DNA from: a virus
Lineage: Duplodnaviria > Caudoviricetes
Strand: one strand, 5' to 3'
Virus record (IMG/VR): IMGVR_UViG_3300025875_000034
Coordinates: 1-53,645 of that record
Length of the DNA stretch: 53,645 nt
Of the stretch, positions 1 through 53,645 are shown piece by piece. The translations under genes were made by a program, and so were the position numbers. How positions within the stretch are numbered: position 1 is the first letter of the stretch; each line of letters begins with the position of its first letter. Under the pieces are notes generated by a model, which did not search any database, had not been told where the DNA came from, and saw nothing but the letters and a program-made list of their open reading frames with translations.

Positions 1-127
1 ACGTACAAAAGCTTTTTAACGCCTAAGTCTCGCAGCATCTTATCAACGTAGCTCTTGGCTTTATTTCTTGCGTTTTCAATATCAAAACCAAGATTTTTGT
101 TGTAGCTGAAAGCGGTAATCAATCCGC
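1..127. repeat. Terminal direct repeat, left copy (assembly circularisation overlap)
   Basis: 1-127 is identical to 53519-53645 and lies inside a gene. Confidence 0.95.
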
Positions 128-248
128 CTGCGTTCATGTTAGCCCGAACCTGCATCATTGCCGTTCCGTTGCCGACTGTTTCAACTCTTTTGATTAAATA
201 CCCTTTATAAAGGGACGGTTCAAATTCGACTATTTCAACAGATTTCAT
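1..248 (-). CDS. 5' part of 137-aa hypothetical protein spanning the circular junction (continues 53518 to 53353)
   Basis: AAAAGCCGCAAGC-ATG at 248; MKSVEIVEFEPSLYKGYLIKR...GGLITAFSYNKNLG runs in frame into the 53353..53640 ORF. Confidence 0.85.
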   Translation of the reverse strand, partial: MKSVEIVEFEPSLYKGYLIKRVETVGNGTAMMQVRANMNAGGLITAFSYNKNLGFDIENARNKAKSYVDKMLRDLGVKKLLY

Positions 249-298
249 GCTTGCGGCTTTTCTGTTTGCAACTAGGTAAATATACGCATTTTTAAGCA

Positions 299-333
299 GA
301 AAACCTTGTTCACAGACTGCAAACAAGGTTTTC
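299..333. terminator. Stem-loop, possible terminator
   Basis: GAAAACCTTGTT-N11-AACAAGGTTTTC, intergenic downstream of 385..612. Confidence 0.5.
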
Positions 334-384
334 ACTTTCGGACCTTTGAATATTTTATTATTGATTTATTCAAAGACGTTTGAT

Positions 385-612
385 TTATTCTGATAGATTT
401 ATTCCAAGGTTTTTATCCTTTTCTTCATCTATCCTGCATTGGCAAAGCCCGTCATAGGCAGTAACCAAGCAGTTCCCGTCAGTTATACACGTATAGGGGC
501 AAGGTTGCCTTCCTTCGCGGTTCATTGGCTGTTCTAACAGGAAGTTTTGACAGCAATTGATGCCAAGCGCCACAACGGGGCAAAGCTTGTCGTTTTCGTG
601 CGGGCAATTCAT
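385..612 (-). CDS. Cys-rich hypothetical protein (75 aa)
   Basis: ORF with start motif AAAGCCGCAAGCATG; many Cys residues. Confidence 0.7.
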   Translation of the reverse strand: MNCPHENDKLCPVVALGINCCQNFLLEQPMNREGRQPCPYTCITDGNCLVTAYDGLCQCRIDEEKDKNLGINLSE

Positions 613-622
613 GCTTGCGGCT

Positions 623-1078
623 TTAATTAACTATTGTACGGTAAAGCTCGACAAGCTTTGCAAACTCCTTTTCAAAGTGCTGTTCATTCAGGAACCAAAT
701 AGAACGGTCAATTCTGGTTTTTCCGACAAACTGAACAAGGAAGTAGAACCGGCAAGTCTTGCGGTTTATCGAAACAAAGTATTGCGAATGAATCCCAACA
801 TGAAGCAAGTAATGTTCTTGCGCATCAATACCAATCGGAACATCTGCAACCGGCATCAAGCCCCAATTCAATAATTCCTCAACTTCCGGAACGTATGCTT
901 TGGGGCTTTCCGGGTGTTGTTGATACTCATTTTGGAAGTTGCGAATTCGCGGGAAATCGTTTTGCAGCGCCTTACTTGCTGCGCCCAACTCTCGCAGGCT
1001 CCGCACCATTTCTTTGCGGTTCTCGCCTTGAAACCATTCCTGCGGCCCGTTTATGATTGGCGTGTTGTCATCACTCAT
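623..1078 (-). CDS. Hypothetical protein (151 aa, start re-called to MSDDNTP)
   Basis: ATG overlaps stop region of upstream gene; removes long overlap. Confidence 0.7.
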   Translation of the reverse strand: MSDDNTPIINGPQEWFQGENRKEMVRSLRELGAASKALQNDFPRIRNFQNEYQQHPESPKAYVPEVEELLNWGLMPVADVPIGIDAQEHYLLHVGIHSQYFVSINRKTCRFYFLVQFVGKTRIDRSIWFLNEQHFEKEFAKLVELYRTIVN

Positions 1079-1292
1079 AAACAAACCCTTCCATTGCCTT
1101 GCGCAAGTGCAAAACAATCTTGTTCGCATCTTCCTGCGAGTAGTGAACAGAGAACAATGAAACCTGAATTTCAAGATTGCCTTTCGGCGCTTCAACACCT
1201 ACTGTTGCAACCTTTTTCAGCTTCACTTTTGGCGGTTCATTCCGCATCTGCTTGCGGATTGACTTAATCTGCTTTCCGGTTTCGTCTTTCAT
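1071..1292 (-). CDS. Hypothetical protein (73 aa, MKDETGKQ)
   Basis: AAAGCCGCA-ATG start motif. Confidence 0.75.
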   Translation of the reverse strand: MKDETGKQIKSIRKQMRNEPPKVKLKKVATVGVEAPKGNLEIQVSLFSVHYSQEDANKIVLHLRKAMEGFVYE

Positions 1293-1299
1293 TGCGGCT

Positions 1300-1479
1300 T
1301 TATTTTTGGGGAATCGTTTTAAGATGCGCGGTTGCAATCCGCAATTTCTCTTGCGCCGTTTTTACGGCTTTCGTCAGGCGAACAACAATCTGAACTTGCT
1401 TGTCAAACTCTGACACTGCTTTTTTCTTCGTTTTCTTGCCCGCTGCGCTACTCTTTGCGGCTGTTGCTGTCTTTGCCAT
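1300..1479 (-). CDS. Small basic protein (59 aa, MAKTATAAKSSAAGKKTKKKA...), not in ORF track
   Basis: Translated by hand; fills the gap, TAA abuts next start motif. Confidence 0.7.
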   Translation of the reverse strand: MAKTATAAKSSAAGKKTKKKAVSEFDKQVQIVVRLTKAVKTAQEKLRIATAHLKTIPQK

Positions 1480-1540
1480 TGTGAAGGGATTTGCGGCGCT
1501 CCTGTGCGCGAAGGATTAGAAAAATAATGAGTCCCATTGT

Positions 1541-1723
1541 TTACGGAAGTTCGGGTTTGATGATTGGATTAAAGAGCCGCCAAGTACGCATACTTTTTAT
1601 ATTAAACAACCTGTATGCACCTAGTTTCTTCTCATATACTGCACTGTTGAAGAAACAGTTATACAAATTCATATACATGAACTTGTTTGTCTCAAGGCTT
1701 TCTGCATCATCAATTGAAAACAT
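1541..1723 (-). CDS. Hypothetical protein (60 aa)
   Basis: AAACCGCA-ATG start motif. Confidence 0.6.
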   Translation of the reverse strand: MFSIDDAESLETNKFMYMNLYNCFFNSAVYEKKLGAYRLFNIKSMRTWRLFNPIIKPELP

Positions 1724-2333
1724 TGCGGTTTACAACATCAAGGTTGAAATGAAAGTTTTTCATCATAGCTGCAACACTTGCAGCCGACTTGCCAGCCATC
1801 AACAAGGCTTCACCATACCTTTCAATTGCGCTATATTTTGGCTTGCTCTGTATTCGCAATTCCCGTTCCCGGATGCGCAGCCGGGCTTTCGCACCTTCAA
1901 CTGACAAGCCAATCTTGCGGGTTGCATTTGCGGCCCCGTTGTTGACAACCTGCTTGACTTCTGACATTGCCTTTTTCGTCATCAAGTCGAGCCAATCTGA
2001 ATCGGGCCAACCGTCATACACTATGCCGAAAGCCTTTTCGAGTTGCGCGGCTGTCATTTCAGCAATCAGAGTTGCAACGGCTGCAACCTGCACTGATTCT
2101 TGTTCTAATTCAATCAGGCGCTTTTTGAATTCGCCCCGATTTTCTGCGCGGTTTAGCTCAAGTATTGCTTTCGCAACTTCGCCGGTTTCCTCTGACAGCA
2201 CAGTTGATAGAACAAAGAAGTCGTTTTCATTGCCCCAATTCCTTTCTATGCGCAGGCGCTCTTGACGAATTCGCTCTTGCTTGACAAATGCAAGCGCATC
2301 ATCAATTCTTTGTAGTTGTGTTGGCTTTTTCAT
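1710..2333 (-). CDS. MazG-like NTP pyrophosphohydrolase domain protein with C-terminal extension (207 aa)
   Basis: VLSEETGEVAKAIL...LEQESVQVAAVA resembles the all-alpha NTP-PPase ExxE motifs; start AAAGCCGCAAG-ATG. Confidence 0.7.
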   Translation of the reverse strand: MKKPTQLQRIDDALAFVKQERIRQERLRIERNWGNENDFFVLSTVLSEETGEVAKAILELNRAENRGEFKKRLIELEQESVQVAAVATLIAEMTAAQLEKAFGIVYDGWPDSDWLDLMTKKAMSEVKQVVNNGAANATRKIGLSVEGAKARLRIRERELRIQSKPKYSAIERYGEALLMAGKSAASVAAMMKNFHFNLDVVNRNVFN

Positions 2334-2565
2334 CTTGCGGCTTTCTTCTGGCAATTATGAAGTCAATAATTATGTCCGGGCTTTCAACTTGGTTCAGCTT
2401 GTGCAATGCTTTTGAAATCTTTCTAAGAGCTTTTTGAACTTTGTTTGATTCAAGAATTCCTAGCCTGTTTCTGAAAGCAACCTGCGCTTCCGAATTGAAA
2501 GCCATTGATGCAGTAAACATCAAAGCCGCCTGCATTGCTTCTTCATCTGTTAGCTTGATTTTCAT
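2302..2565 (-). CDS. Hypothetical protein (87 aa)
   Basis: ORF with TAAGCCGCA-ATG. Confidence 0.75.
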   Translation of the reverse strand: MKIKLTDEEAMQAALMFTASMAFNSEAQVAFRNRLGILESNKVQKALRKISKALHKLNQVESPDIIIDFIIARRKPQDEKANTTTKN

Positions 2566-2571
2566 TGCGGC

Positions 2572-2805
2572 TTATTTCAGTTCTCGAATTGCTTTGTCTA
2601 ATTCGGCCCGGCTTTTTTGAAGCCTTACCCATTGCTCTGCGGCTTCCTTTTCACGCCTGCAATCCCTTAATTCCTCTTGAAAATACCAAGCTTGATGTTT
2701 ATACAAAGTATAGTCATCAATATGCTGTCTTATTGCGCCCACTATTAGCGCAATGATGATTCCCGCAATAAAGCAGAGAGCCTTTTGTTTCGTTTCATTT
2801 TTCAT
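2572..2805 (-). CDS. Membrane-anchored coiled-coil protein (77 aa, MKNETKQ)
   Basis: N-terminal hydrophobic helix; start motif. Confidence 0.75.
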   Translation of the reverse strand: MKNETKQKALCFIAGIIIALIVGAIRQHIDDYTLYKHQAWYFQEELRDCRREKEAAEQWVRLQKSRAELDKAIRELK

Positions 2806-2936
2806 TGCGGCTTTTGTGTCAGATGAATTGTAATAAGAAAACAGGGAACCGGGCAAATGTAAATCTTGCTTTTCTTGGCATCAATGAACGCCCCAATCCA
2901 TAAGTCATACCAAGCAAATGAGAAGCTGACTTTCAT
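2802..2936 (-). CDS. Small hydrophobic protein (44 aa, MKVSFSFAWYDLWIGAF...), not in ORF track
   Basis: ATGA overlaps at both ends; translated by hand. Confidence 0.65.
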   Translation of the reverse strand: MKVSFSFAWYDLWIGAFIDAKKSKIYICPVPCFLITIHLTQKPQ

Positions 2937-3373
2937 TTGTACTTGCGGCGTGAACTCATAAAACCTTTGAACGGAACCGGCTTTTCTTTGGGCTGTTGCG
3001 GAGCCTTCATTGCAAGCAACGGCGCAGGGTCAAACACTGCTTGAGACTCGTTGATTATGCGTTTCAACCGTTCATCAAAGCGCTCCCAAAACGCCCGGAA
3101 TTCGCCGCCAACCTCAATACTGCATTCAACTTCAACCGTACCTCCTAAATACGGGCCGTGCGGCATTGGCTCGATTTCAGGCGCGAAAGGAATTGAACAT
3201 TGTGCAATTTCTTCTCGCAAGCTGTCTGCGTGTTCATCAAGCTTGCGAATGCAGTAATCATCTGCAAGCTTGTCAAGAATTTTCACGCCTGCCTGCAACA
3301 ACCTCTCTGTAACAAAGAAGCCCGAACCCGGACCAAGAATGAGAATGATTTGCTTTTTCTGTTCCTCTTTCAT
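2933..3373 (-). CDS. Hypothetical protein (146 aa, MKEEQKK)
   Basis: AAAGCCGCAAACTGAA-ATG start. Confidence 0.7.
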   Translation of the reverse strand: MKEEQKKQIILILGPGSGFFVTERLLQAGVKILDKLADDYCIRKLDEHADSLREEIAQCSIPFAPEIEPMPHGPYLGGTVEVECSIEVGGEFRAFWERFDERLKRIINESQAVFDPAPLLAMKAPQQPKEKPVPFKGFMSSRRKYK

Positions 3374-3405
3374 TTCAGTTTGCGGCTTTAAATGATAATG
3401 TCGTT

Positions 3406-3771
3406 TTATGCCTGTTTTCTTGCCGCTGTTGGCATCTTCCAACCATAACGGACAAGTACGGCTTCAAATAGCTGAAACGTTGTCACAGAGGTTCGCAGCG
3501 GTGCAACCGGGCCGTATTGTTCGGGTGAAGCATTCAGCCAAGGTTTCGAGTGAATAACGAATATTTCCCCGTATTTGGGCAAGAGCGAAACTGTTATATG
3601 CCAACGTTCCTCCTTTGTTGGCCCGTCATGCAACCAACTCCAAACGTTTATACCTTTCAGCCTGAAACCCGCTGATTCCATCTGTTGCGGCGTAGGATGC
3701 CAAAAGGAAGCAACAGCGGGCGCATTTGCCGCTGTTGCCGTTGTTGAGCCTTTCCCTTTTGACGTTGCCAT
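3406..3771 (-). CDS. Hypothetical protein (121 aa)
   Basis: ORF tiling, TAAAGCA-ATG. Confidence 0.75.
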   Translation of the reverse strand: MATSKGKGSTTATAANAPAVASFWHPTPQQMESAGFRLKGINVWSWLHDGPTKEERWHITVSLLPKYGEIFVIHSKPWLNASPEQYGPVAPLRTSVTTFQLFEAVLVRYGWKMPTAARKQA

Positions 3772-3779
3772 TGCTTTAT

Positions 3780-5057
3780 TTAAACCGGCTCAACAAGCCT
3801 GCAAGCGTTCATTGCCCGCTGCATTATGGTGAACGATTCGTTGTAGTTGATTTTCACAAAGTATGCCTTGCAAAGCCGGAATACTTCAAACGCAGGCTTT
3901 GCCGACATATTTTCAGTGCTCATTACTGCATCTTGTTTCAGGTATTCGAGTGCGGCTGCAAGTTCGCTGTTTTCTTCCTGCACAAGAACCCATTTCGCAG
4001 AGTTGATTGCAACCGTTTTCAATTCTGCGTTGGTATAGATTGCAGTGAATTCGCTTGCGGAGAAATCAACGTTGCGGCCTTCAATCAGGAGTGAAACGCC
4101 GCCGTTGCTAAAGTTTTGGTCAATATCGAATTTTTGGCCGTTGTAGCGGGAATATGCTGATTCCGGATGAACGTTCACAATTGCTTGCATCTTCTTTGTA
4201 GGCGCAGGCTTTGCCATTGATTCAAGCTGCGCAGCCAAAGGAGCAACAACCGCAACATCTTCCGCAGTCACTACAACGGGCGGGAAATCCGGCAACCAAT
4301 CGGCTTTGTAATACAAGGCGGCGTTTCCCTTGCCTTCCGTTTTGCCTTTCTCCAAATAGCCAAGCCGAACAAGCTTTTCGCAAGACTCGATTGCGGTTGA
4401 ACTCATAACGTGCGAAGATATGCCAGCAACAGACGCAACAACATCTTCATAAACTTCAATCATTTCAGCCGTAGGCGCGTTTGCTGCGTCATAAGCCGCT
4501 GCAAGAATATCAATGTAAGAGTCAATGAAAACCATCTTGTGCAGCCGTGCGCCGCCAAACGGGCCGTTGTAAGTCACTGTCTTTTCACCTACTGCGGAAA
4601 TTGTCAGAGTGCGGCCCGTATTGTCAACAAACGAGAACCCGCGAACCGTCATCTTCTCTGCCTTTTCATATTTGTTCTTTGGCGCTTCAACCTCTGCAAC
4701 CAAAGTTGACAAGAGCAACTGCGCTTCATTGTCATCAATGAACAAATTCTTTTTGATGCGAACCGTAAAGCCGCCCAATTCAGGGAACATTGCGTTTTTC
4801 AAAAGGCGCTTCACAGTTACCGTCTTTGGGCCAACAGAAACAACCGTATCTGTGCAATCTTCCCAAACTTCATAACCCTTTTTTACTTGATGCTGACTTG
4901 TGAATTGCATTCCGGGCTTGATGCTTTCTGCGGCAACGTTGCGGCGTTCTGCGCCCGTCAGGCTGTCAAACTTACGCATTGGAGAATTTACGTATTCGGC
5001 GTAAGCACTAGGATTGCGCTGTTTCAGTGTTTCGAGTTGTGCGGCTGACATTGACAT
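3780..5057 (-). CDS. Multidomain hypothetical protein (425 aa) with repeated beta-barrel-like segments and a possible winged helix
   Basis: TVVSVGPKTVTV and TISAVGEKTVTY repeats; ESCEKLVRLGYLEK; first gene behind a conserved promoter. Confidence 0.75.
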   Translation of the reverse strand: MSMSAAQLETLKQRNPSAYAEYVNSPMRKFDSLTGAERRNVAAESIKPGMQFTSQHQVKKGYEVWEDCTDTVVSVGPKTVTVKRLLKNAMFPELGGFTVRIKKNLFIDDNEAQLLLSTLVAEVEAPKNKYEKAEKMTVRGFSFVDNTGRTLTISAVGEKTVTYNGPFGGARLHKMVFIDSYIDILAAAYDAANAPTAEMIEVYEDVVASVAGISSHVMSSTAIESCEKLVRLGYLEKGKTEGKGNAALYYKADWLPDFPPVVVTAEDVAVVAPLAAQLESMAKPAPTKKMQAIVNVHPESAYSRYNGQKFDIDQNFSNGGVSLLIEGRNVDFSASEFTAIYTNAELKTVAINSAKWVLVQEENSELAAALEYLKQDAVMSTENMSAKPAFEVFRLCKAYFVKINYNESFTIMQRAMNACRLVEPV

Positions 5058-5086
5058 AGCTTGCGGCTTTTCGTTTTTGGTATACC

Positions 5087-5140
5087 CAAAGGTAGGTAAA
5101 AAATAATACGCAAGTCAAGCTTTCCTGAAATTATTTTTCA
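5087..5140 (-). promoter_or_regulatory. Conserved phage promoter cassette (palindrome + TTG-N21-TACCTTTG)
   Basis: Minus strand TGAAAAATAATTTCA-GGAAAGC-TTGACTTGCG...TACCTTTG matches Bacteroidota -33/-7 consensus; near copy at 42336-42389. Confidence 0.8.
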
Positions 5141-5386
5141 AGGCAATCTTTTCAGCCAATTCAAACCGCCTCGCAAGAGTCGCATTGATGCGAAGTCGGC
5201 AACAGTCTTTTGCGGAGTGGTTAGAATGCCGCAATAGGTTGCGAACGTATGAACAAAGCTGTCTGCCTTGTTGGCCTTCACCCGCTGCAAGTACCGCTTG
5301 TTCAACTCGACTTCAACAAGATTCTTGCGCAGTTGGCGCAGTTCGTGTTTTGACAGCCAATGACAGTATTGTTTTTTCTTTTGCAT
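5138..5386 (-). CDS. Hypothetical protein (82 aa)
   Basis: Start motif AAAAGCCGCA-ATG. Confidence 0.7.
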   Translation of the reverse strand: MQKKKQYCHWLSKHELRQLRKNLVEVELNKRYLQRVKANKADSFVHTFATYCGILTTPQKTVADFASMRLLRGGLNWLKRLP

Positions 5387-5394
5387 TGCGGCTT

Positions 5395-5910
5395 TTAATA
5401 CGGGGCTTTGGGAAAATTCGGGCTTTCACCGCTTACTGCATAGTAAAAGACTGACTTGCCTTCATCTGCTTTTGCTTCATCTTCGCTTGCGTATTGACCT
5501 AACCTGCGGCGCTCTGCAAGCTCCCAATCATACGCCTTCCGCTTGGCTCTGCGTTCGTTTTCCTTGCGAACGTTGTCTGAATTTTCCAGCGGTTGAAGGT
5601 TGTCTATAACATACCCTTTTTCGTTTTCCTTGCGGTCAATGTGAAGGCTTGTTGCGTACCTTCCGCGCTTGTCGAGCAAATCAACGGGCCGCGCAAATTC
5701 CTTGAATTGCTCAAGCGTAATTTCAAATTTATATTCATGCTTGCGGCTTTCGGGCGCTTTCGCCTGCCTTGCGGCAACACTGTTGCGCCACTGACGAAAG
5801 GCGGTTTCATACGGGCGAACCTGCTTTTCGTGCCTGTAATCACAAGAAGAACACCGCACCTTGCGCGGCGCGGCGTTCTTTTCGCAATCCTTACACTTTT
5901 TCGCCTGCAT
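5395..5910 (-). CDS. HNH-like (His-Me finger) endonuclease with N-terminal Zn finger (171 aa)
   Basis: CKDC...CSSC; FEITLEQF; SLHIDRKENEKGYVIDNLQPL...N. Confidence 0.65.
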   Translation of the reverse strand: MQAKKCKDCEKNAAPRKVRCSSCDYRHEKQVRPYETAFRQWRNSVAARQAKAPESRKHEYKFEITLEQFKEFARPVDLLDKRGRYATSLHIDRKENEKGYVIDNLQPLENSDNVRKENERRAKRKAYDWELAERRRLGQYASEDEAKADEGKSVFYYAVSGESPNFPKAPY

Positions 5911-6587
5911 TAATCTTGCGGCAACCCGTCCTTTGGAAGCGTCAATTCATAACCTTCCGCAGCAACTCGCAGCTTTACAAAGTCAGCAAGTGTTGCAACG
6001 TCACTCGTTTTCCAAAATAGCCAATCCAAGCCCGAAAGCGTAGCAACGTAAGATTCAATTGGATTCAAGAACGGCTTCCGGTCATCATTCGAGAAACCAA
6101 GAGCGCAGGCGCTCAATTGGGCGCATTCCTCCTGAACAGAGTGCAGCTTGTCTTTGCCGTACAAACGGCGCATCTTCTCGCAAGATGCTTCAATGTTTTC
6201 GCCAAAGCCAATCAAACCCTGAAATTCAGGAACGCCCGCCTGAAACACGAACTGCAACCCGATATTCTGAAAAATAGACATTGCCGCAGTTGCAACGGCA
6301 TCTTCATAAGTCCCTTCAACAGAAGCCCGGAAGGTTTGCAGAAACAGTTGGTTTGCCTCTGCATCTTCACCTTTGGTCAAAGCTAAATCAAGTAATGACT
6401 TGACGGTTGCTTTGTCATTCTTGCGGCTGTTCTGTTGCCACGTCTGCGAAATTCCAAACAGGAAATGCAGAGTACGCAGGCGCAACGATGAATCAGCTTG
6501 CGGCTTGTTATTGTCTTTGTGCGTCTGCTTTTCCGGCAACAGTCGAGTTGCGGAAGTAATTAGAGACATTGCGGTTTCCTTTTTCAT
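5910..6587 (-). CDS. Hypothetical protein (225 aa)
   Basis: ORF with TAAGCCGCA-ATG. Confidence 0.75.
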   Translation of the reverse strand: MKKETAMSLITSATRLLPEKQTHKDNNKPQADSSLRLRTLHFLFGISQTWQQNSRKNDKATVKSLLDLALTKGEDAEANQLFLQTFRASVEGTYEDAVATAAMSIFQNIGLQFVFQAGVPEFQGLIGFGENIEASCEKMRRLYGKDKLHSVQEECAQLSACALGFSNDDRKPFLNPIESYVATLSGLDWLFWKTSDVATLADFVKLRVAAEGYELTLPKDGLPQD

Positions 6588-6593
6588 TGCGGC

Positions 6594-7049
6594 TTAATAA
6601 TTAAACGGGTTTGACAAATCCTGCGGCTTTTCGCCAAAGATACACACAGGAGCAAGCGGGCTGTTGTTGTGTGAAACCGCAAGCCAAACTTGCCCGAATT
6701 CGCTTGCATATCTAACTTCTGTTTCAGTCAGCTTTCTACGGAAAATAGAATGCCGATAATCAGAATAAATATACAAGCAGGCACTTTCGGAATCCGAACT
6801 AAAATCTGTATTGCTGTTGAGCTTTTCAGCAAAGATGCGCGGAACCGCAAGCACTGCATGACAATGAAGAACAACAAGCCAAACTTCACCTTTCTCGACA
6901 ACAGCCGCCAATTCTTGCGGGTTGAAGTCCCAAAGGGAAATTGCGTGTTTGTCATCAATGTAAACCGGCAAAGTCCCAACTCTGCCTTCATCACCTTTTG
7001 CGGGTTTCAAATAGGTGTTTGCTTCCGGGAAATCAGACCAACTTGCCAT
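6594..7049 (-). CDS. Hypothetical protein with internal domain duplication (151 aa)
   Basis: LPVYIDDKHAISLWDFNPQEL...GEVWLVV vs LYIYSDYRHSIFRRKLTETEV...GQVWLAV. Confidence 0.75.
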   Translation of the reverse strand: MASWSDFPEANTYLKPAKGDEGRVGTLPVYIDDKHAISLWDFNPQELAAVVEKGEVWLVVLHCHAVLAVPRIFAEKLNSNTDFSSDSESACLYIYSDYRHSIFRRKLTETEVRYASEFGQVWLAVSHNNSPLAPVCIFGEKPQDLSNPFNY

Positions 7050-7052
7050 TGC

Positions 7053-7820: not shown

Positions 7821-7821
7821 T

Positions 7822-8297: not shown

Positions 8298-8302
8298 CTG
8301 TT

Positions 8303-9530: not shown

Positions 9531-9532
9531 AA

Positions 9533-45326: not shown

Positions 45327-45347
45327 CTTGAGCTATGATGCTTCTAA

Positions 45348-46262: not shown

Positions 46263-48036
46263 AACCTAAAAGAGTTTTTTGAATGATGGAAATTTTGTTT
46301 TCGTATGCAAGCAGGTTTCCCCATTGAACAACCGGGCCGTTCTCCCGTTCAAATTTAAGAATGTAATTATAAAAATTGCTTTTTAGCATTACACTATCAA
46401 AGGGGAACATTCGCAAGAAAATCGAATCAGGCGTTAATGCAGAAATTGTTGATGCGTCAATTGTTACGTCAGGAAACGGTTCTAATTCAGAAAGGATGCG
46501 TTGCCGCAATTTCATATCCTCGTTAGTCCTGTATTTCGTTTCGTCTCGCAACCTGCGAGTTGAAGCCAGAACATATTGCGGCATTCCGCTTTTCTTCTGA
46601 CGTTCATATATTTCATCTAATTCTTGCGCAGACTGTAAATAAAATTCGTCTCCGTAAAATACGGTTGAACCAATAAAATCTGCGCCGAACATTAATTTGC
46701 ACAGAGTATCAAGAATCCATTTGTCTGCGGCTTCAAAATTACTCTTGTAAGCAATGACATAATTCTTGCGACTCTCGAAAGCCGAACGAACCTGTTTTTC
46801 GTTTTTAGCTGCATCATTGCCCGGTTCGCCTGCAAAGCCTGTGATATTCCTGTGAATTTCTTCTTTGCGCTCTGTCAGGCGTTTTGAAGCGTGTTCTAAG
46901 GAAGTAACAGGGGTTTCGATAATACCAAGCGGTTCCCGCAAGTCTGCATCTGTGCTGTTGTTCGGAGCGCTTACACGCTTCACTGAACCCGGCCCGATAT
47001 ACTTTGACTTGATACATTCGCCGCAAGGCGTTGTATAGGTCTGAATGAACTCCTTTTTCCCGCTTGGAACGGTAAGGTCCGGAACAACTACAATGTTGGT
47101 ATGAACGAACTTGCCTGACTGACAAGCTTCACCCTTTTCGTTTAGGTGTTTCGGGTCTTTATCAAAGTACTCCCAATAGATAGGGTAAATGCCGGTTGCC
47201 TCGAAATTAATCAAGCCGGTTTCCCAAAATAGCAGAGAGTCAAGCTTGCCCAATGAACCCGTCAAAGGAGCCTTGCGCTGAATCTTGTCAGTCTTAGTCA
47301 GTCGAGTTGACCAAAACGTTCTTGCCGGGCAATACCCTAAACCCGCAATCAGTTCTCCGCTTTCAGTGCGCAGTGAGTGCGCAACCTCTGACGTTAGAAC
47401 ATAGGGTGAATCAACGTCCGGGCGCGTTAAAACACGAAAGTATGTGTCATCAAAAACACACACTTTGTTTCTTGCGGCATCTTGCCGAAATATGATGTAT
47501 TCTGCAACGTTGTCCGGCTTAACATCAACGTCAATGACGTGTTCAATGTCGAGTAGGTAGAAATAAGGCTGCGCCCGTTCACCAATAGTTTCTTGCGGCA
47601 AGTCAACAATCAAGAATGAGTTGATTGCGTTCTTGGATGCCTCAAATGCTTCTTTGCGCCAAAACGACTCGCAGCCAATCTTTACCTTGTATTCCTCAAA
47701 TTCGTCTGCGAATTCGGGCGTATAGAATTCATGCTTGAAGTACCTGTTTTCGGCATACAAGCCGCGCTCAAGCTCTGAAAAGATGCTTGCGGTAAATTCA
47801 ACAGTCGGAAGCGGAAATTCAAGAGCCTGTTTGAACTGCTTGAATTTCTCCGCAGGAAGCCGGGCTTCAATCCCATCCAAGACGGTCTTATAAGCCGGGC
47901 TTACTTCCTTTTCATCTTGTGCTGCATCAACATGAAGCCGCAAGCGTTCATTGTGCTTGCGGCTTCTTTCTATTGATGCACCGTTATTCGGACGTTCTAG
48001 CAGGTTTAGGACTTCCGGAAGGGACAAGTTTGCCAT
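46159..48036 (-). CDS. Portal protein (625 aa)
   Basis: Size and position between TerL and scaffold/MCP; contains CQSG...CGEC insertion. Confidence 0.75.
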   Translation of the reverse strand: MANLSLPEVLNLLERPNNGASIERSRKHNERLRLHVDAAQDEKEVSPAYKTVLDGIEARLPAEKFKQFKQALEFPLPTVEFTASIFSELERGLYAENRYFKHEFYTPEFADEFEEYKVKIGCESFWRKEAFEASKNAINSFLIVDLPQETIGERAQPYFYLLDIEHVIDVDVKPDNVAEYIIFRQDAARNKVCVFDDTYFRVLTRPDVDSPYVLTSEVAHSLRTESGELIAGLGYCPARTFWSTRLTKTDKIQRKAPLTGSLGKLDSLLFWETGLINFEATGIYPIYWEYFDKDPKHLNEKGEACQSGKFVHTNIVVVPDLTVPSGKKEFIQTYTTPCGECIKSKYIGPGSVKRVSAPNNSTDADLREPLGIIETPVTSLEHASKRLTERKEEIHRNITGFAGEPGNDAAKNEKQVRSAFESRKNYVIAYKSNFEAADKWILDTLCKLMFGADFIGSTVFYGDEFYLQSAQELDEIYERQKKSGMPQYVLASTRRLRDETKYRTNEDMKLRQRILSELEPFPDVTIDASTISALTPDSIFLRMFPFDSVMLKSNFYNYILKFERENGPVVQWGNLLAYENKISIIQKTLLGYVNTDRESASAQFDRLPIGGTAAKPNGGPETGND

Positions 48037-48208
48037 CTTCGAGCGCGTAGGGGGATTTGTCAGGAAGTGTGAAGATACCGTTATTCAACGGGCTTGTCAG
48101 CAAGGCTTGCGCGTGTTCACCGTCATACGGCATTGCAACGGGCTTTTCGCCTTTCTTCTTACTTACCTGAACTAGCAGTTCAACTTTCGTTCCTTTCTTG
48201 AGTGACAT
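47984..48208 (-). CDS. Small structural-region protein (74 aa)
   Basis: ORF tiling. Confidence 0.7.
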   Translation of the reverse strand: MSLKKGTKVELLVQVSKKKGEKPVAMPYDGEHAQALLTSPLNNGIFTLPDKSPYALEDGKLVPSGSPKPARTSE

Positions 48209-48248
48209 TGTATTTTACAGTTATGCTTGCGAATAACAAAACCGCTAC

Positions 48249-48911
48249 TTATGCAGCGGCTTGCAGTTCAACAAACGGGTTAAAATCAAGGTCAACAAGT
48301 GCAACACGTTCGTCCCAATCCGCAGGCAGATAGAAGGAAATGACGTTTTTGTTGTCTTGGTTCAGACCTTCCGAACTCGTTCCGCCAACGTGGAAGTTGT
48401 AAAGCGGAATACCTTCATACGTGTCTGCAACTTCCTCGCCTTCCTCGAATACCTTTTGCAGCAAGGCTTGGTTGTTCACGTTGAACAGACCAATCGTAAG
48501 AGAGAAGCCGCCAAACGTAGGCAACGACATTTCTTCATACGAACGCAGAACAACCAACTGTTCAGTCGAGAGGTTGGCGCAGGTTAGCTCAACAAGGATT
48601 GCAGAGCGCCCCAAAGCGCGGGGAATACCTTTGAACGTGCTGTTGTCGTTGCCGCCTTCCTCCTGACGTTCTGACGGGGGAATTACAAGCCCGGCAAACA
48701 CAGGAGTCAGAACCATTTTCGCAGCGCCTAGTGCAGCCATTGCGGAAACCCAAGATGCTTTAGCATTCGCGGGCAAAGCAGGCGTGAACGGGCGGCTTGC
48801 GGACGGTTGAACCAACTGCAACGCACCCATTGCAAATTGGTCGAATTTCATGCCGCAAACACTTGCGGGCATTACTTTTAGCGCTGTTGGGCGCGGGCAA
48901 TTGAATTTCAT
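48249..48911 (-). CDS. Probable major tail tube protein (220 aa, MKFNCPRP)
   Basis: AAAACCGCA-ATG; beta-rich; own promoter; no other tube candidate near the tail genes. Confidence 0.5.
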   Translation of the reverse strand: MKFNCPRPTALKVMPASVCGMKFDQFAMGALQLVQPSASRPFTPALPANAKASWVSAMAALGAAKMVLTPVFAGLVIPPSERQEEGGNDNSTFKGIPRALGRSAILVELTCANLSTEQLVVLRSYEEMSLPTFGGFSLTIGLFNVNNQALLQKVFEEGEEVADTYEGIPLYNFHVGGTSSEGLNQDNKNVISFYLPADWDERVALVDLDFNPFVELQAAA

Positions 48912-48960
48912 TGCGGTTTTGTTTGGGTGAAGTATAAAATGCAAAATTGCAAAACGAATC

Positions 48961-48990
48961 CAAATATAATTTTTTAATTCTCGGTTTCAA
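48961..48990 (-). promoter_or_regulatory. Bacteroidota sigma-A-like promoter for head operon
   Basis: TTG-N19-TATATTTG on minus strand. Confidence 0.6.
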
Positions 48991-50503
48991 TCCGCTTGCG
49001 TTCTTCTGTAAAGAAATTTTGCAAAGTGTCCTGAACCAACAAGTCAACTTCATCATCATGCTTTGAAGCCGGGAAACCTGCGTACTGTTTAATTGTGACG
49101 GGAATCCAAGGATTTGATGAATCTTCTTCAACAAGAACAACTCGACTAGATAACCAAGTAGGAATGCAAGCCATTGCCCTAGTCACTTTGTCTTTGTCAT
49201 ACATAGTTGTTCCCATAATTTTGGGATACTCGTATTTCATCACATTTAATTTTGTCCGCAAGTAAATACTTTGAACAATCGAAATGCCGTTTGCTTTCGG
49301 TTCTACTTCAATAATTGAATTATGGTTGTAGCCGTAACGCATAACGAATTGCGGTATATACTCAAGCAACCGTTCGTAATTCATATACACTGACTCCGAA
49401 CGCCTGACGTATTGAATATTATCTACAAAACAGCTTGCGTATAGTGCGGTTGGGTCATTGCTGTCAGCATCTTCCGTAAATGCACCGTCAATCTTGAATT
49501 TCCAAGCAACGAATTTGTTTTTCGTTCGCCGCAAGAATTCCTCCCAATTAATACGGGGGAATCTATCAGTTGGAATAATATTACCCGCAAGCGGTTGCGG
49601 ATTCTGTTGATACAGGCTGTTAAAGGTTCGTTCTCCGCTTATGCGCTTTTTATCAAGCAGGAGTTGAACTGAATGACGTTCGGGCCAAAGCGCCTCGCCT
49701 ATTTGGCGCGGGTCGAGTGCAGTTGGCGGTTCTTCCTTGATTGCGGGATATTTTATAATTGTCCATTCAGGCTCTAAACCGTCTCTGATACGCTTTGCAT
49801 CTTCCGCTTCAAGCCTTCCTCCAAGGTCATCTTCGTGCCAACGGGTTTGCAGCAAGAGTTCTTGTGAACCGTTGTGCAATCGAGTCTTGAAAACGTCTGT
49901 GTACCAATTCCAAACGTTGTCACGCATCCTTTCTGACTCCGCTTCAATCCGGTCCTTTAGCGGGTCATCAATAATGCCAATATCAACGGGCGTTCCCGTC
50001 AGTGCAGTACCTATGCCGACATTCTTGAAGAAACCCTTGCGGTTTACAATTTCAAATATGTCAGAGTTCTTGAGGTACGTTGGCCTGCCTGCCTTATGGT
50101 TGGCCCAAACTTCGCGCCCGTTCAATCTTGTTCCGGGAAATAGCTGCAAGTATTCCGGGCTTTCAATGATGCGCTGACAAGCTCTGTTGAAGCCAGAAGA
50201 AAGGGAATCGGAGTATGAACAAACCGCAATCTTTAAATCCGGGTTGATGCCTAACGCATAAGCAGGAAACAGGATTGATGACAACTGACTTTTGCCGTGC
50301 TGCGGTGGAATATATATTGCGAGTTTTTTTATTATTCCCTTTAAAAACAGGTCTAACGCCGTGCAAACCGCTATATGATGAATTGCGGCTTCGTAATTCG
50401 GCATTACAAACTTTGCAAACGACAACATACCTCGCCGCGCAAGTTCCTCTCTTATTTGCTCAAGAGTAGGTAAGTTTTCAATAAGCTTGTCTAATTCTCG
50501 CAT
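48974..50503 (-). CDS. terL: Terminase large subunit (509 aa)
   Basis: IPPQHGKSQ Walker A, GIIDDP Walker B, QTRWHEDDL, LYQQNP, FPASKHDDEVD. Confidence 0.95.
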   Translation of the reverse strand: MRELDKLIENLPTLEQIREELARRGMLSFAKFVMPNYEAAIHHIAVCTALDLFLKGIIKKLAIYIPPQHGKSQLSSILFPAYALGINPDLKIAVCSYSDSLSSGFNRACQRIIESPEYLQLFPGTRLNGREVWANHKAGRPTYLKNSDIFEIVNRKGFFKNVGIGTALTGTPVDIGIIDDPLKDRIEAESERMRDNVWNWYTDVFKTRLHNGSQELLLQTRWHEDDLGGRLEAEDAKRIRDGLEPEWTIIKYPAIKEEPPTALDPRQIGEALWPERHSVQLLLDKKRISGERTFNSLYQQNPQPLAGNIIPTDRFPRINWEEFLRRTKNKFVAWKFKIDGAFTEDADSNDPTALYASCFVDNIQYVRRSESVYMNYERLLEYIPQFVMRYGYNHNSIIEVEPKANGISIVQSIYLRTKLNVMKYEYPKIMGTTMYDKDKVTRAMACIPTWLSSRVVLVEEDSSNPWIPVTIKQYAGFPASKHDDEVDLLVQDTLQNFFTEERKRIETEN

Positions 50504-50510
50504 TCCGCAA

Positions 50511-50744
50511 TTACTTCTTTATTTCGCCTGCATATACTCGTTTGCAGTACTTAATTATTTGAATGCACTGTTCGCAATCAATTTTGTCAACTGTTGTTTC
50601 GCAATCAAGTATTCCCGACACTTCGCAAACACCTTCATTCAGTCCGCACAAGCTAGAATCATTTATTGTTCCCGCAAGGCACACTTTCGTTTCAGGCTGG
50701 CTTTCGTCATTGGTTGGTGCAAAGGTGAATCTAAGATGCTTCAT
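50511..50744 (-). CDS. Cys-rich small protein (77 aa, MKHLRF)
   Basis: SLCG...IDCEQC; start motif. Confidence 0.75.
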   Translation of the reverse strand: MKHLRFTFAPTNDESQPETKVCLAGTINDSSLCGLNEGVCEVSGILDCETTVDKIDCEQCIQIIKYCKRVYAGEIKK

Positions 50745-50751
50745 TGCGGCT

Positions 50752-50964
50752 TTATTTATTCGTGACAAACCAAGTTGAAAACTTTGCGGCTTTCCTGATT
50801 TCAACTATTGCGTCTTGGTCTAAGTCTTTAAGCGTTTCTTCAAACTCCTTTTTCGTTACTCGCATATATCCGAAAGGTGTTTTGACATTCACCCAATCAG
50901 CACGTTGCTTGATTATCATTCGGGCTTCTTTTACTGTGACGTGATTCCATTCAGTGTAATTCAT
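50752..50964 (-). CDS. Hypothetical protein (70 aa)
   Basis: Start motif. Confidence 0.75.
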   Translation of the reverse strand: MNYTEWNHVTVKEARMIIKQRADWVNVKTPFGYMRVTKKEFEETLKDLDQDAIVEIRKAAKFSTWFVTNK

Positions 50965-50986
50965 TGCGGCTTTTTTAAATGAACAA

Positions 50987-51014
50987 CCCGCACTCCTGTT
51001 TATTGAAGTGCGGG
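50987..51014. terminator. Intergenic stem-loop
   Basis: CCCGCACT-N12-AGTGCGGG. Confidence 0.45.
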
Positions 51015-51026
51015 CGCTCTGTTGTG

Positions 51027-51506
51027 TTATTGCGGTTTTATCAACTCTTGCTTTGGGTAATCAATAAACCCGTTTGAATCAGTCGGCTTGTATTTGCTTG
51101 CATCCCAAACTGTACCGTCATCATCCCTTAACAGGTTCAAAGCTTCCGCCTCTGTCATGTTGAACGGGTCTTTGTAAACGTATTGCGGATTTTCGTTTGT
51201 GACTTTCAAATTGTCGCAAGACATTCCGGAAGGGAATTCGGGTTTCGTCATCAACCCGGCTGTCAAGTCTCCTATGCGCTGAACAAGTTCCGCAGGTAGA
51301 TTCGCAGGAGTCTTATTGCCTTGCGGGTGCGGTTCCGGGTCCGGGTAAAGGTCTTTGCCGTATTTGCGCTGCTTGACAACGTAGCGTTCCGGGTCATAAA
51401 AGAGAACGCCCGGTTCGCCCGTCTCTTTATGCGTTGGCCCGTAATCCTTGATGAAGTCAAGTTGAATTTCTGATTCCTCTGCGGTTGTGAAGCTGGCTTT
51501 TCTCAT
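51027..51506 (-). CDS. Hypothetical protein (159 aa)
   Basis: AAAACCGCA-ATG. Confidence 0.75.
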   Translation of the reverse strand: MRKASFTTAEESEIQLDFIKDYGPTHKETGEPGVLFYDPERYVVKQRKYGKDLYPDPEPHPQGNKTPANLPAELVQRIGDLTAGLMTKPEFPSGMSCDNLKVTNENPQYVYKDPFNMTEAEALNLLRDDDGTVWDASKYKPTDSNGFIDYPKQELIKPQ

Positions 51507-51513
51507 TGCGGTT

Positions 51514-51687
51514 TTATCTTATTCCTCCTTTACGTGTAGGCCAATTGATTTCTGACGTTGTAGGTAAGCGCAAGTGCGGGTAAGCGTCTCCAAGATGATA
51601 GTTGAACAGCGCATTCCCTGCATTCCGCAAGGCTGCAAGCTCCTGTTTCAATCTTTCGTTTTCGGCTTCAAGTTGGCGCTTTGTCAT
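51514..51687 (-). CDS. Small coiled-coil protein (57 aa, MTKRQLEAENERLKQEL...), not in ORF track
   Basis: AAACCGCA-ATG; translated by hand; fills the gap. Confidence 0.7.
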   Translation of the reverse strand: MTKRQLEAENERLKQELAALRNAGNALFNYHLGDAYPHLRLPTTSEINWPTRKGGIR

Positions 51688-51693
51688 TGCGGT

Positions 51694-51972
51694 TTAATAA
51701 TACAGGTTCTCGATTGCGTCAAGCTTGTTCTTGAAGTATTCAAGGCAGTTGACTTGATTCAGATAAACGCCTGAATCCTTTGAAACCTGCGCATCTTCCA
51801 AGAGCCTGATACTGTCTTTGATGCCTTCAACCTTTTCCTTGTAGTGCTGAACCCGTTCTTCTCTTTCGCTGCGGATTTGCTTCAATTGGTTCAGCATATT
51901 GTGCTGACGAATCCAAAGAATTATTGAGGCGCAAAGCAAGACAACAACTGCGGCAATTAATGCTTTTTCCAT
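51694..51972 (-). CDS. Membrane-anchored coiled-coil protein (92 aa, MEKALIAA)
   Basis: N-terminal TM; ACCGCA-ATG. Confidence 0.75.
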   Translation of the reverse strand: MEKALIAAVVVLLCASIILWIRQHNMLNQLKQIRSEREERVQHYKEKVEGIKDSIRLLEDAQVSKDSGVYLNQVNCLEYFKNKLDAIENLYY

Positions 51973-51980
51973 TGCGGTAT

Positions 51981-52196
51981 TTAGCTTTTGTTGATGTGCA
52001 TTTGATACCACAAATAAGGCCAAAGCACGAATGAAAAGAGAATGATGAAAAGCTTTGTGAATTGCGGGTTGAAAAATCTTATTGAAAAATCTTCCTCGAT
52101 TTCATCATTGAATTCATCAACTAATTCTTGATTGCGGGTTTCGTACATGACGAAAAGCATTCCAAAGACAATATGAATTAAAAAGGCTGTCAGCAT
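51981..52196 (-). CDS. Two-TM membrane protein (71 aa)
   Basis: Two hydrophobic segments. Confidence 0.7.
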   Translation of the reverse strand: MLTAFLIHIVFGMLFVMYETRNQELVDEFNDEIEEDFSIRFFNPQFTKLFIILFSFVLWPYLWYQMHINKS

Positions 52197-52202
52197 TGTG
52201 TT

Positions 52203-52628
52203 TTAAGCTCTGTATGATTGCGGATAAATTTGCTCTAAGTGCTGCGCGGCTTGCCGGGAAATGATGCAGCCGTTCCACTCGAAAGACAAGCCGTAATGCG
52301 TCATCTTTGTAATGTCGCAAGTGAAGGCGTTGTTGCGCTGAACGCCTCTGTATAGCCTTTCTTCACCATTTACTGACAAGTGAACGCCTCTTTCGTCATT
52401 GGCTAAATACTTATACTCAACATACTCTTGCGGCTTTCCAACTTCATCTTGCGGCTTTTCTTCGCTTACTTCAAACGACTTCACCAACGCCTGCGCATAT
52501 TGGGTTTGGCTTCCTCTTGCGGCAATCGAAACGCCGCCTTGAAATTCCCAATTGTCATTCTTGTGTTCAGCAACAGCCTTTTCAAACAAGTCAAGGTCTG
52601 TTGATTCAATTACTTTGTAAGTTGTCAT
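52203..52628 (-). CDS. DUF1737-like domain protein (141 aa, MTTYKV)
   Basis: YKVIES...FEKAVAEH...WEFQGGVSI...YAQALVK; start motif. Confidence 0.65.
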   Translation of the reverse strand: MTTYKVIESTDLDLFEKAVAEHKNDNWEFQGGVSIAARGSQTQYAQALVKSFEVSEEKPQDEVGKPQEYVEYKYLANDERGVHLSVNGEERLYRGVQRNNAFTCDITKMTHYGLSFEWNGCIISRQAAQHLEQIYPQSYRA

Positions 52629-52636
52629 TGCGGCTT

Positions 52637-52894
52637 TTAATATGGTGAGTTGTTTCCTTTTTTGCTGTTGCCGTATCTGCGTTGCAGTACGCATTGCATA
52701 TACAAAGAAATGTAGCGGTATTTCTTTGCGACTTCCTTCCGCAGCTTGGTTTGCGTTTCAAGATGCTTGCCCCGTTCCTCTCGCAGCTTCTTTTCAAGGC
52801 TGTTGCGTTGCGTTTCCGCAAGTATGACTGCGCCTAAAAGCATAAGGTCAACAAAGACTGAAAACACAAGTGCGGCTATTTCTGGCTTTTCCAT
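52637..52894 (-). CDS. Membrane-anchored protein (85 aa)
   Basis: N-terminal TM. Confidence 0.7.
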   Translation of the reverse strand: MEKPEIAALVFSVFVDLMLLGAVILAETQRNSLEKKLREERGKHLETQTKLRKEVAKKYRYISLYMQCVLQRRYGNSKKGNNSPY

Positions 52895-53341
52895 TTATGC
52901 AGAGTAAAACGAACTTTTAGGCATCTGATTGAAGGCGGCGCAGCAAGGACAATTGAACCCGTCAACCTCGTATTCCTCCTGCTTTATATCGAAAGCTTTG
53001 CCGCGCTCTGTGATTGCCGCAAGCGTAACTTCAAGTTCAGATTTGCAGGTTGTGCAGATGCGCCGAACGCTTGCAATGAAGGTGTTCTTCAATACTCTGA
53101 TTGCGGGTTGCGACCCTTTCAGCCTTTCAGCGAACGTTGGCTTTGGCCGTTCGCCGGGCGTTGTTTCAAGTACGCTTTCCTCAATAAAAAGAGAAAGCCG
53201 CAAGAGTCCGGCTTGCGCCTTTTCAAGCGTTTCAGGAGTTGATGCGCTCCTTTCAACATCTTCTGCAATTCCGGCAATCCAACCTTTGCCGCGCTCTGCG
53301 GCTTTGAATAATATGTGAAGGCTTTCTTCTGTGCTTTTCAT
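52895..53341 (-). CDS. Zinc-ribbon protein (148 aa)
   Basis: CTTC...CPCC; AAAAGCCGCAATT-ATG. Confidence 0.75.
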   Translation of the reverse strand: MKSTEESLHILFKAAERGKGWIAGIAEDVERSASTPETLEKAQAGLLRLSLFIEESVLETTPGERPKPTFAERLKGSQPAIRVLKNTFIASVRRICTTCKSELEVTLAAITERGKAFDIKQEEYEVDGFNCPCCAAFNQMPKSSFYSA

Positions 53342-53352
53342 AATTGCGGCTT

Positions 53353-53645
53353 TTATTCGGTGAATGTTTGACCAATTGAAACTGTTCCTTGTTGCGACTT
53401 TACAAATTCAATCAACTCCTTTGCGCTTTGCCCTACTCGATTCCTCAAGTAAGGCGGCGCGTCCGTAATGATGTTGTCTGAATCAACTATTACGCCGCAA
53501 GTGAATTTCTCTGTTGAGACGTACAAAAGCTTTTTAACGCCTAAGTCTCGCAGCATCTTATCAACGTAGCTCTTGGCTTTATTTCTTGCGTTTTCAATAT
53601 CAAAACCAAGATTTTTGTTGTAGCTGAAAGCGGTAATCAATCCGC
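53353..53645 (-). CDS. 3' part of the junction-spanning 137-aa protein starting at 248
   Basis: Frame is continuous across the terminal repeat. Confidence 0.85.
   Translation of the reverse strand, partial: GLITAFSYNKNLGFDIENARNKAKSYVDKMLRDLGVKKLLYVSTEKFTCGVIVDSDNIITDAPPYLRNRVGQSAKELIEFVKSQQGTVSIGQTFTE
53519..53645. repeat. Terminal direct repeat, right copy
   Basis: Identical to 1-127. Confidence 0.95.

Follow-up and report, generated by a model that had tools for sequence, protein, structure and literature searches.

Short sequences repeated many times over are known from several bacterial and phage genomes, and no known family fits the one described here, the word CCGCAA and its complement TTGCGG in the 53,645-bp genome of a virus of the Caudoviricetes (IMG/VR record IMGVR_UViG_3300025875_000034; the window, in what follows, is this entire record). 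The word is the strongest oligonucleotide signal in the genome, and a tenth of its copies are tied to gene starts. It occurs in two layers, a strand-specific form at gene junctions and a strand-symmetric, genome-wide surplus of a fuller form, WWN-CCGCAA-K (W, A or T; K, G or T; N, any base). Among described systems, start-associated sequences come closest to the junction form, and iterated motifs of the host type to the dispersed one; a search of the published literature, with supplementary files outside its reach, found no description of CCGCAA over-representation.

The highly iterated palindrome (HIP1) of cyanobacteria and the uptake signal and DNA uptake sequences (USS and DUS) of Pasteurellaceae and Neisseriaceae belong to cellular genomes, from which phages may acquire them; HIP1 is palindromic, and USS and DUS are 9-12 bp long and occur about once per kb. 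Like these, the word is short and very dense, lies in and between genes and in all frames, and is independent of translation, but it is non-palindromic and denser, and no enrichment of it was seen in 401 Bacteroidota genomes. The stoperators of cluster A mycobacteriophages are 13 bp long, number about 25-35 copies oriented with transcription, and have a known repressor. Stoperators resemble the word in being asymmetric sites in many copies throughout a phage genome, near gene boundaries and inside genes, and are read by one phage regulator; no repressor was identified among the scanned proteins of this phage.

Stoperators are also named in the description of the start-associated sequences (SAS) of cluster K mycobacteriophages, 13-mers with an AGGAG Shine-Dalgarno (SD) core and roughly 10-20 copies per genome, for which a role in initiating translation or in binding a factor has been suggested (PMC3203893). 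Like SAS, the word at starts is a short and asymmetric repeat that is private to the phage, sits no more than a few bases from an ATG, is confined to non-structural genes (29 of 31 here), is absent or rare in host-type genomes and keeps to a single orientation, the last being true of the start-linked form only (31 vs 3) and not of the bare hexamer. Unlike SAS, its core (AGCCGCA) is without an SD, often directly abuts the ATG and lies behind a TAA stop, and some 270 additional copies of the hexamer lie inside genes on both strands. SAS are conserved across related phages (PMC3203893), whereas the two relatives recovered here (L009 and L010) are without the word. A further precedent comes from phages LLS and P1, with 23 and 50 Chi sites, respectively, where the most frequent k-mer is likewise a functional DNA signal that accumulated against codon-usage expectation (PMC12315714). 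There, however, the signal is the host's octamer, present once per 1.9 kb, strongly oriented and clustered, whereas here it is a hexamer, present once per 175 bp, unoriented in the structural block and uniform; Chi-rich phages, among them lambdoid phages without a recombination module, are described as lacking recombination genes (PMC12315714), whereas recombination-type genes are present here and no host-type enrichment was found in the genomes searched.

Abundance, form and distribution of the word

On the plus strand of the window CCGCAA occurs 122 times and TTGCGG 185 times, a total of 307 against 21.6 expected by base composition (14.2-fold), which makes them the most frequent hexamer pair of the window, at about one copy per 175 bases or 5.7 per kb with both strands taken together. 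The original prediction, made from the sequence by eye, had called the pair about 10-fold over-represented in both orientations and inside genes. The over-representation is confirmed, as are its sub-window counts (2 + 16 = 18 copies in 1-3000, 9 + 7 = 16 in 30001-33000), and the raw excess is real; a figure of 10-14-fold nevertheless overstates the anomaly, as a Bacteroidota genome (G068) is already at 3-fold and other hexamers in the related phages are at about 10-fold. The minus strand carries 58 of the 68 open reading frames (ORFs) of a greedy set that covers 88% of the sequence, and the coding strand below refers to these genes. The word and the blocks over which it is distributed are as follows.

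1..53645, either strand: genome-wide word (C)CGCAA(G/T) with an A/T-rich 5' flank (WWN-CCGCAA-K), 307 exact hexamers
248..22150, minus strand: non-structural block A, 94 coding-strand and 42 template-strand copies, 22 of 31 word-preceded ORF starts
22201..50510, minus strand: structural block (tail, tape measure, head, portal, large terminase), 5.2 copies per kb
50511..53645, minus strand: non-structural block B, 18 coding-strand and 6 template-strand copies, 7 start-associated copies
1..127 (= 53519-53645), either strand: terminal direct repeat, exact over 127 bp, 0 copies of the word

Copies of the hexamer prefer A/T at -3 and -2 and G/T at +1, and this preference, which defines the 10-bp degenerate form WWN-CCGCAA-K (172 copies, 109 on the coding and 63 on the template strand; 3.2 per kb), is identical for sense and antisense copies. 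In the structural block the word is equally dense but perfectly strand-symmetric (73 vs 74 copies), and only two start-associated copies occur there. Because of this symmetry and the identical flanks in both orientations, the dispersed surplus points to action on double-stranded DNA, or on both single strands. Spacing between copies is near exponential (mean 174, median 129), 1-kb bins hold 5.7 copies on average with a variance of 5.9, and the periodicity check that had been proposed returned the codon period (power 9.2) and, apart from that, no more than a weak signal at period 10 (6.5, uncorrected), with none at 10.5 or 11. CCGCAA is not its own reverse complement, and a search for dyads or half-site spacings gave nothing beyond the palindromic TTGC-N1-GCAA, which explains only 26 sites.

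Beyond the gene junctions, a further 150-200 copies of WWN-CCGCAA-K lie in synonymous sites and in variable residues of conserved proteins. In the portal gene, for example, ten copies of the word exploit conserved Leu-Arg, Pro, Cys and Gly residues through codon choice and also fill variable alignment columns with residues unique to this phage. We compared the copies in coding DNA (58 minus-strand ORFs, 47,475 bp) with several null models, of which the synonymous one comprised 300 synonymous-codon shuffles.

Observed in coding DNA: sense 150, antisense 106 (256 total)
Synonymous shuffle: sense 44.3 ± 5.6, antisense 39.6 ± 5.5
Codon-order shuffle: sense 23.4, antisense 23.7
Null without new copies of nine avoided tetramers: sense ~55 (48-64), antisense ~45 (34-53), 6 runs
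Null creating no absent or near-absent hexamers: sense ~60 (48-63), antisense ~60 (56-72), 4 runs

The excess survives the codon-preserving shuffles, under which its disappearance had been named in the original prediction as a refutation, and it does so in all frames and both orientations: the six frame and orientation classes are each enriched 2.1-6.4-fold over the synonymous and 4.5-9.8-fold over the codon-order null, and the observed counts are still about twice those of the shuffles that keep the avoidance of words. When all hexamers are scored against the synonymous null, the 99th percentile lies at z 9.2, and the two most extreme words are CCGCAA, with z 22, and CGCAAG, which overlaps it, with z 23.5. 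The next independent family, CGCCCG/CGGGCG, counts 93 vs 22 (z 16.8) and is strand-symmetric; it has the companions AACCCG and CCGGGC and partly forms terminator-like intergenic hairpins of the type AAAGCCCGcc...ggCGGGCTTT.

Markov models of orders 0-4 predict 9.4, 27.4, 48.0, 72.9 and 93.3 copies of CCGCAA (observed 122) and 12.2, 26.8, 63.5, 120.5 and 140.3 copies of TTGCGG (observed 185). In the 4th-order model, the other check named in advance, the excess falls to 1.3-fold, yet that model is uninformative because its pentamers are filled by the motif itself, so that it cannot tell a real motif from chance. Because the excess survives codon shuffles and sense and antisense copies share their flanks, a DNA-level component exists. 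The earlier suggestion of a DNA-level role separate from translation is upheld in its frame and orientation independence and its shared flanks, but not for the 31 copies that mark ORF starts.

Start-associated copies at gene junctions

The junction form reads TAA-(A)(G/A)CCGCA(AGCA)-ATG and is strand-specific. An ATG follows within 0-9 nt of 63 of the 185 coding-strand copies, compared with 15 of the 122 copies on the other strand, and the word marks the first ATG of an ORF of at least 40 aa 31 times on the coding strand and 3 times on the other. At these 31 starts the word ends 0-6 nt before the ATG or overlaps its A, 18 of them lie 6-12 nt behind the TAA stop of the upstream ORF, and 29 fall in the non-structural blocks (248-22135 or 50744-53341). 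Longer versions are more strongly oriented than the bare hexamer (185 vs 122), with 43 coding-strand and 11 template-strand copies of AAGCCGCAA, and the 16-mer AAAGCCGCAAGCAATG occurs five times, on the coding strand every time.

11305..11320, minus strand: junction example ATAAAGCCGCAAGCA, immediately ahead of the ATG that opens the gene for the DnaQ-like exonuclease (10552-11304)
612, 1292, 2565, 5057, 5386, 6587, 8587, 12774, 16822, 18168, 18527 and 22135, minus strand: examples of ATGs adjoining the word in block A
50744, 50964, 51506, 51687, 51972 and 53341, with the probable true start 52628, minus strand: ATGs adjoining the word in block B
39046 and 48911, minus strand: ATGs adjoining the word in the structural block

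Taking the first possible start of an ORF (TTG or an upstream ATG) probably mis-sets the starts of 38621-39139, 48249-48944 and 52203-52694, for which the word-preceded ATGs at 39046, 48911 and 52628 are better candidates.

Comparison genomes and candidate explanations

The host is probably a member of the Bacteroidota, because an SD-like tetramer lies upstream of only 3 of 58 genes, promoter-like boxes described below recur between genes, and tetranucleotide frequencies correlate (r 0.79) with those of G068, a Bacteroidota genome with a GC content of 46.6% (46% in the window). Non-use of the SD is documented in Bacteroidetes (PMC7797042, PMC6847099), and the word itself holds no AGGAG. A 400-kb sample taken along the G068 chromosome has CCGCAA at 3.0 times its base-composition expectation (rank 48 of 2080) and showed no replichore skew of the word; CGGCAA is enriched 4.8-fold in G068. 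With G068 as the background, the 307 copies in the phage compare with 67 expected (4.6-fold) and the word keeps its first rank among hexamers; ordinary background accounts for about a fifth of the raw excess.

Relatives were sought with the portal protein: an IMG/VR scan with the single protein as query returned none, and an 8-sequence portal alignment recovered L009 and L010, whose portals are 42% identical. These two phages carry only 9 and 14 copies of the hexamer, and their gene leaders are A/T-rich and without the word. Their own top GC-rich words stand at about 10 times base-composition expectation, are strand-symmetric, exceed the synonymous null 2.3-2.7-fold with maximum z of 6.1 and 7.8, and come without a junction motif. 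Each of five 10-kb chunks of the phage holds 50-67 copies of the word (z 11.6-17.6). The comparison set was 84 other viral loci, each represented by its first 10 kb and mildly biased as a set because motif patterns had been used to fetch them, and in none of these does the top word exceed 35 copies or a z of 11.7. In five IMG/VR loci that look unrelated (L355, L293, L323, L288 and L295) the top hexamer is GTAAAC/GTTTAC, with 21-26 copies per 10 kb vs about 3.3 expected, and these may be another phage group with an iterated word.

The 10-mer AAGCCGCAAG occurs 29 times in the 53.6-kb phage, and about 2000 copies per genome would equal that density in a host. Among 401 evenly drawn Bacteroidota genomes it reached at most 57 copies per genome, mostly fewer than 20, similar to its reversed control. 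Five Bacteroidales genomes contain 294-654 copies of WWNCCGCAAK, 0.06-0.23 per kb and 2-3.5 times the reversed control. Two 9-mers within 30 nt matched at least 120 IMG/VR loci, mostly by chance, and a 16-mer matched 89, all as single hits. Two 10-mers matched at least 120 loci in genome contigs, the highest hexamer density among the matches listed being 4.3 per kb in one 4.2-kb locus, and a 17-mer matched at least 115 metagenome loci, where among the matches listed one had two hits and the maximum was 2.05 per kb. Among the matches listed in the viral, genome and metagenome scans, nearly all of them isolated and at the level of chance, no locus of 3 kb or more reached the 5.7 per kb of the phage, and a comparable density was not found in the 401 Bacteroidota genomes, 10 further genomes or the motif-picked loci. 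Two metagenome-assembled genomes labelled uncultured Oscillochloris sp. (G406 and G407, 5.4-5.5 Mb) hold 101 and 70 copies of AAGCCGCAAG vs 12 and 10 of the reversed control, supply 7 of the 120 loci listed for the two-10-mer pattern, and probably carry a dispersed repeat containing this 10-mer.

The vocabulary of the phage is itself narrow. GATC is absent from the window (0 vs 414 expected on both strands), CCAG/CTGG is depleted 11-fold (31 vs 352), the tetramers CCAC/GTGG (48), CTAG (62), CATG (88) and ATCG/CGAT (108) are strongly depleted as well, GAAGAC, CAGCAG, GCTGCC, TTCGAA and CGGCCG do not occur, GCCGGC occurs twice, and 334 of the 4096 hexamers are missing. This pattern looks like an unusually broad avoidance of restriction sites. 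At the other extreme, GCAA/TTGC is enriched 3.4-fold, CGCA 3.2-fold and the whole xxGCAA family 3-6-fold. Avoidance of CTAG and of GATC (36 copies vs 127 expected and 8 vs 168) extends to L009 and L010, but these two are enriched for CCGG-type words (3.5-3.9-fold) that the window phage does not favour.

We rank first, with a probability of roughly one in three, the reading in which the word is a phage-private recognition sequence maintained by selection on top of a Bacteroidota-type oligonucleotide background. One nucleic-acid-binding factor, phage-encoded or hijacked from the host, would read the word; at the junctions it would control early cistrons through translational coupling, repression or RNA processing, for which mycobacteriophage SAS or the targets of T4 RegA and RegB would be a parallel, and through the dispersed double-stranded copies it would also be able to coat, mark or organise the phage DNA. 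First candidates for such a factor are a helix-turn-helix protein (8790-9527), the 688-aa protein (18884-20950) and the small early ORFs, besides host proteins. Several observations weigh against this reading. Generic causes (the 3-fold background, codon and protein choice) explain part of the excess, the avoidance of words lifts the coding null from 84 to ~120, and the 4th-order Markov model leaves only about 1.3-fold. The 'site' is fuzzy, as most one-mismatch neighbours (xxGCAA, CCGCAG, CCGGAA) are enriched and only CCGCAT (4), CCACAA (11) and CCGCTA (10) are depleted. A milder form of the skew may be generic among phages, because L009 and L010 show strand-symmetric top-word excesses of their own. 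The genome is a single one, with no close relative beyond the 42%-identical portals in which conservation could be followed, its host phylum is inferred rather than shown, and the Pfam, PHROGs and atlas scans identified no binding protein, RNA or modification enzyme for the word. Many of these points favour the explanation that follows close behind, tentative in its own right, by which only the junction copies are functional and the rest is a compositional by-product: Bacteroidota-type usage, codon and amino-acid usage and word avoidance would together leave a small 'safe' vocabulary that peaks at CCGCAA/CGCAAG. The extremely skewed vocabulary, with restriction-type words at zero, the broad enrichment of GCAA/TTGC, CGCA and xxGCAA, the likeness to G068 (r 0.79, with CCGCAA at 3-fold and CGGCAA at 4.8-fold), an expectation that climbs stepwise from null to null (22, 67, 84, ~120), the mere 1.3-fold left at order 4, and the top words of the relatives, at ~10-fold over base composition and 2.3-2.7-fold over the synonymous null, are all consistent with it. 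It falls short in that the vocabulary-preserving shuffle yields ~120 vs 256 coding copies and so explains only about half, in that the z of 22 for the word family stands far from the 99th percentile of 9.2 among all hexamers, and in that its copies per 10 kb exceed those of the top word in all 84 comparison loci; avoidance alone would, moreover, lead one to expect neither the specific flanks seen on both strands nor copies at variable positions that are non-synonymous.

The remaining explanations are less probable. It is unlikely that the word is the imprint of a host outside the genomes searched whose whole lineage would carry a hyper-abundant motif, comparable to HIP1 or uptake sequences or driven by repair. 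The uniform, Poisson-like, frame- and strand-independent pattern does match host-wide iterated motifs, WWNCCGCAAK exceeds its reversed control 2-3.5-fold in the five Bacteroidales genomes, and the only carrier run listed is labelled groundwater metagenome, groundwater being a habitat with many unsampled lineages; but AAGCCGCAAG stays at or below 57 copies in each of the 401 Bacteroidota genomes where ~2000 would be needed, the five Bacteroidales genomes reach 0.06-0.23 per kb vs 3.2 per kb in the phage for the 10-bp form, and among at least 120 genome and at least 115 metagenome loci picked by motif the highest densities listed are 4.3 and 2.05 per kb. We give low odds to a composite in which pairing of AGCCGCA with UGCGGCU of the 16S rRNA tethers terminating ribosomes for re-initiation while the dispersed double-stranded copies are a self-mark of the phage. 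The pairing would be a bacterial counterpart of viral termination-reinitiation signals, suited to host ribosomes that ignore the SD, and through the self-mark a phage protein would coat or protect phage DNA while host DNA without the word is attacked. The sequence TGCGGCT, exactly complementary to AGCCGCA, is present in two of the three Bacteroidota 16S genes read (L273 and L274, last 30 nt; L272 has TGTGGCT), where 8 nt separate it from the CCTCC anti-SD that follows it at the 16S 3' end. The odds are low because this stretch, which we take to be the 3' strand of the 16S terminal helix, is presumably base-paired in the mature subunit, and pairing with the junction core cannot explain the antisense copies. 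Slightly less probable still is a Chi-like signal that attenuates a host helicase-nuclease of the AddAB/RecBCD type, or one of the phage, and so protects or recombines the linear phage DNA. Chi sequences of Firmicutes share GCGG with the word, and its density per orientation, one per 290-440 bp, is within the range for short Chi words. That Chi can be the most frequent octamer of a phage is documented for LLS and P1 (PMC12315714). The Chi-like role, which the original prediction had listed, is nevertheless disfavoured, as the word has no polarity (74:73 in the structural block, 122:185 overall), is uniformly distributed and shows no replichore skew in the 400 kb of G068, and the phage has its own PD-(D/E)XK exonuclease (15830-16822), SbcC-like ATPase (16948-18168), NinB and endonuclease VII-like protein. 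Least probable of all is a target of DNA modification, by methylation or hypermodification, or a modification-coupled repair that drives sequence towards the word, even though the genome is clearly shaped by restriction pressure and the iterated palindromes of cyanobacteria are linked to methyltransferases. The word is non-palindromic, its transition neighbours TCGCAA, CTGCAA and CCGCAG show enrichment where the precursors of a very-short-patch-type sink would be depleted, and, in line with what had been noticed before, Pfam and PHROGs gave no methyltransferase or base-modifying enzyme in 52 scanned ORFs, although a host enzyme might take this part. A simple mutational sink, also among the earlier suggestions, is unlikely, as most one-mismatch neighbours are themselves enriched.

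Genome context and significance

The ends of the record are the exact 127-bp direct repeat listed above, and the phage is of the siphovirus type. Gene identities come from PHROGs and Pfam scans of the 52 ORFs of at least 90 aa, which matched structural genes (portal, large terminase, head proteins, tail proteins and a 1517-aa tape measure), a CHAP lysin, a MazG-like pyrophosphatase and a helix-turn-helix protein scored as small terminase. The replication and recombination block comprises, besides the four recombination-type proteins named above, a DnaD/O-like initiator, the DnaQ-like exonuclease and a Gp3-like protein. No methyltransferase appeared among these ORFs even at an E-value of 0.5, no tRNA genes were found in the window, two uncharacterised proteins of 424 and 688 aa gave no usable protein-atlas match (TM at most 0.24), and blastn of 7.5 kb of the window against GenBank phage records gave no match. 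The sole sequencing run listed with phage sequence is the DNA run from groundwater, possibly its source, and no RNA runs with phage sequence were among those listed.

The hairpins noted in the original prediction both fold as described; the stem at 45300-45326 uses GCCGCAG and not the hexamer itself.

8233..8258, minus strand: intergenic hairpin with one TTGCGG and one CCGCAA as its stem, listed as a 12-bp stem and a 12-nt loop (-17.9 kcal/mol, z -4.7)
45300..45326, minus strand: terminator-like 15-bp hairpin followed by UUU, stem GCCGCAG/CUGCGGC, a one-mismatch neighbour of the word (-25.1 kcal/mol, z -6.6)
8610-8795, 5052-5143, 18788-18889 and 16817-16953, minus strand: inverted repeat and promoter-like boxes, shared sequence

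A hairpin origin of the word was rejected, as paired copies are few (10 forward-then-reverse and 8 reverse-then-forward pairs within 24 nt). The inverted repeat (cctgaaaaataatttcagg-like) is common to the four intergenic regions in the last line and is followed by TTGAC and a TAnnTTTG-like box, presumably boxes of the Bacteroidota promoter type, and from their sequence these regions are probably regulated promoters of that type. The only sizeable stretch of plus-strand ORFs in the window (42363-42731 and 42721-43083, within 42294-43131) includes a match to the Mu transposase C-terminal domain (ORF 42721-43083, E 1.5e-7); the word flips in 42294-43131, with 4 CCGCAA vs 1 TTGCGG on the plus strand, and is thus sense-biased relative to the local genes.

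Should the word be functional, phage genes would have in it a start or junction signal within a lineage with ribosomes that do not use SD pairing (PMC7797042, PMC6847099), and little is known of how phages program translation in such hosts. A highly iterated word would then also be the property of the virus and not of its host, so that the biology of iterated motifs could be told apart from the maintenance of host genomes and a dedicated reader protein would be expected. As a by-product, the word would still leave the phage a clear example of restriction avoidance narrowing the vocabulary of a phage genome, with no GATC and hundreds of hexamers missing.

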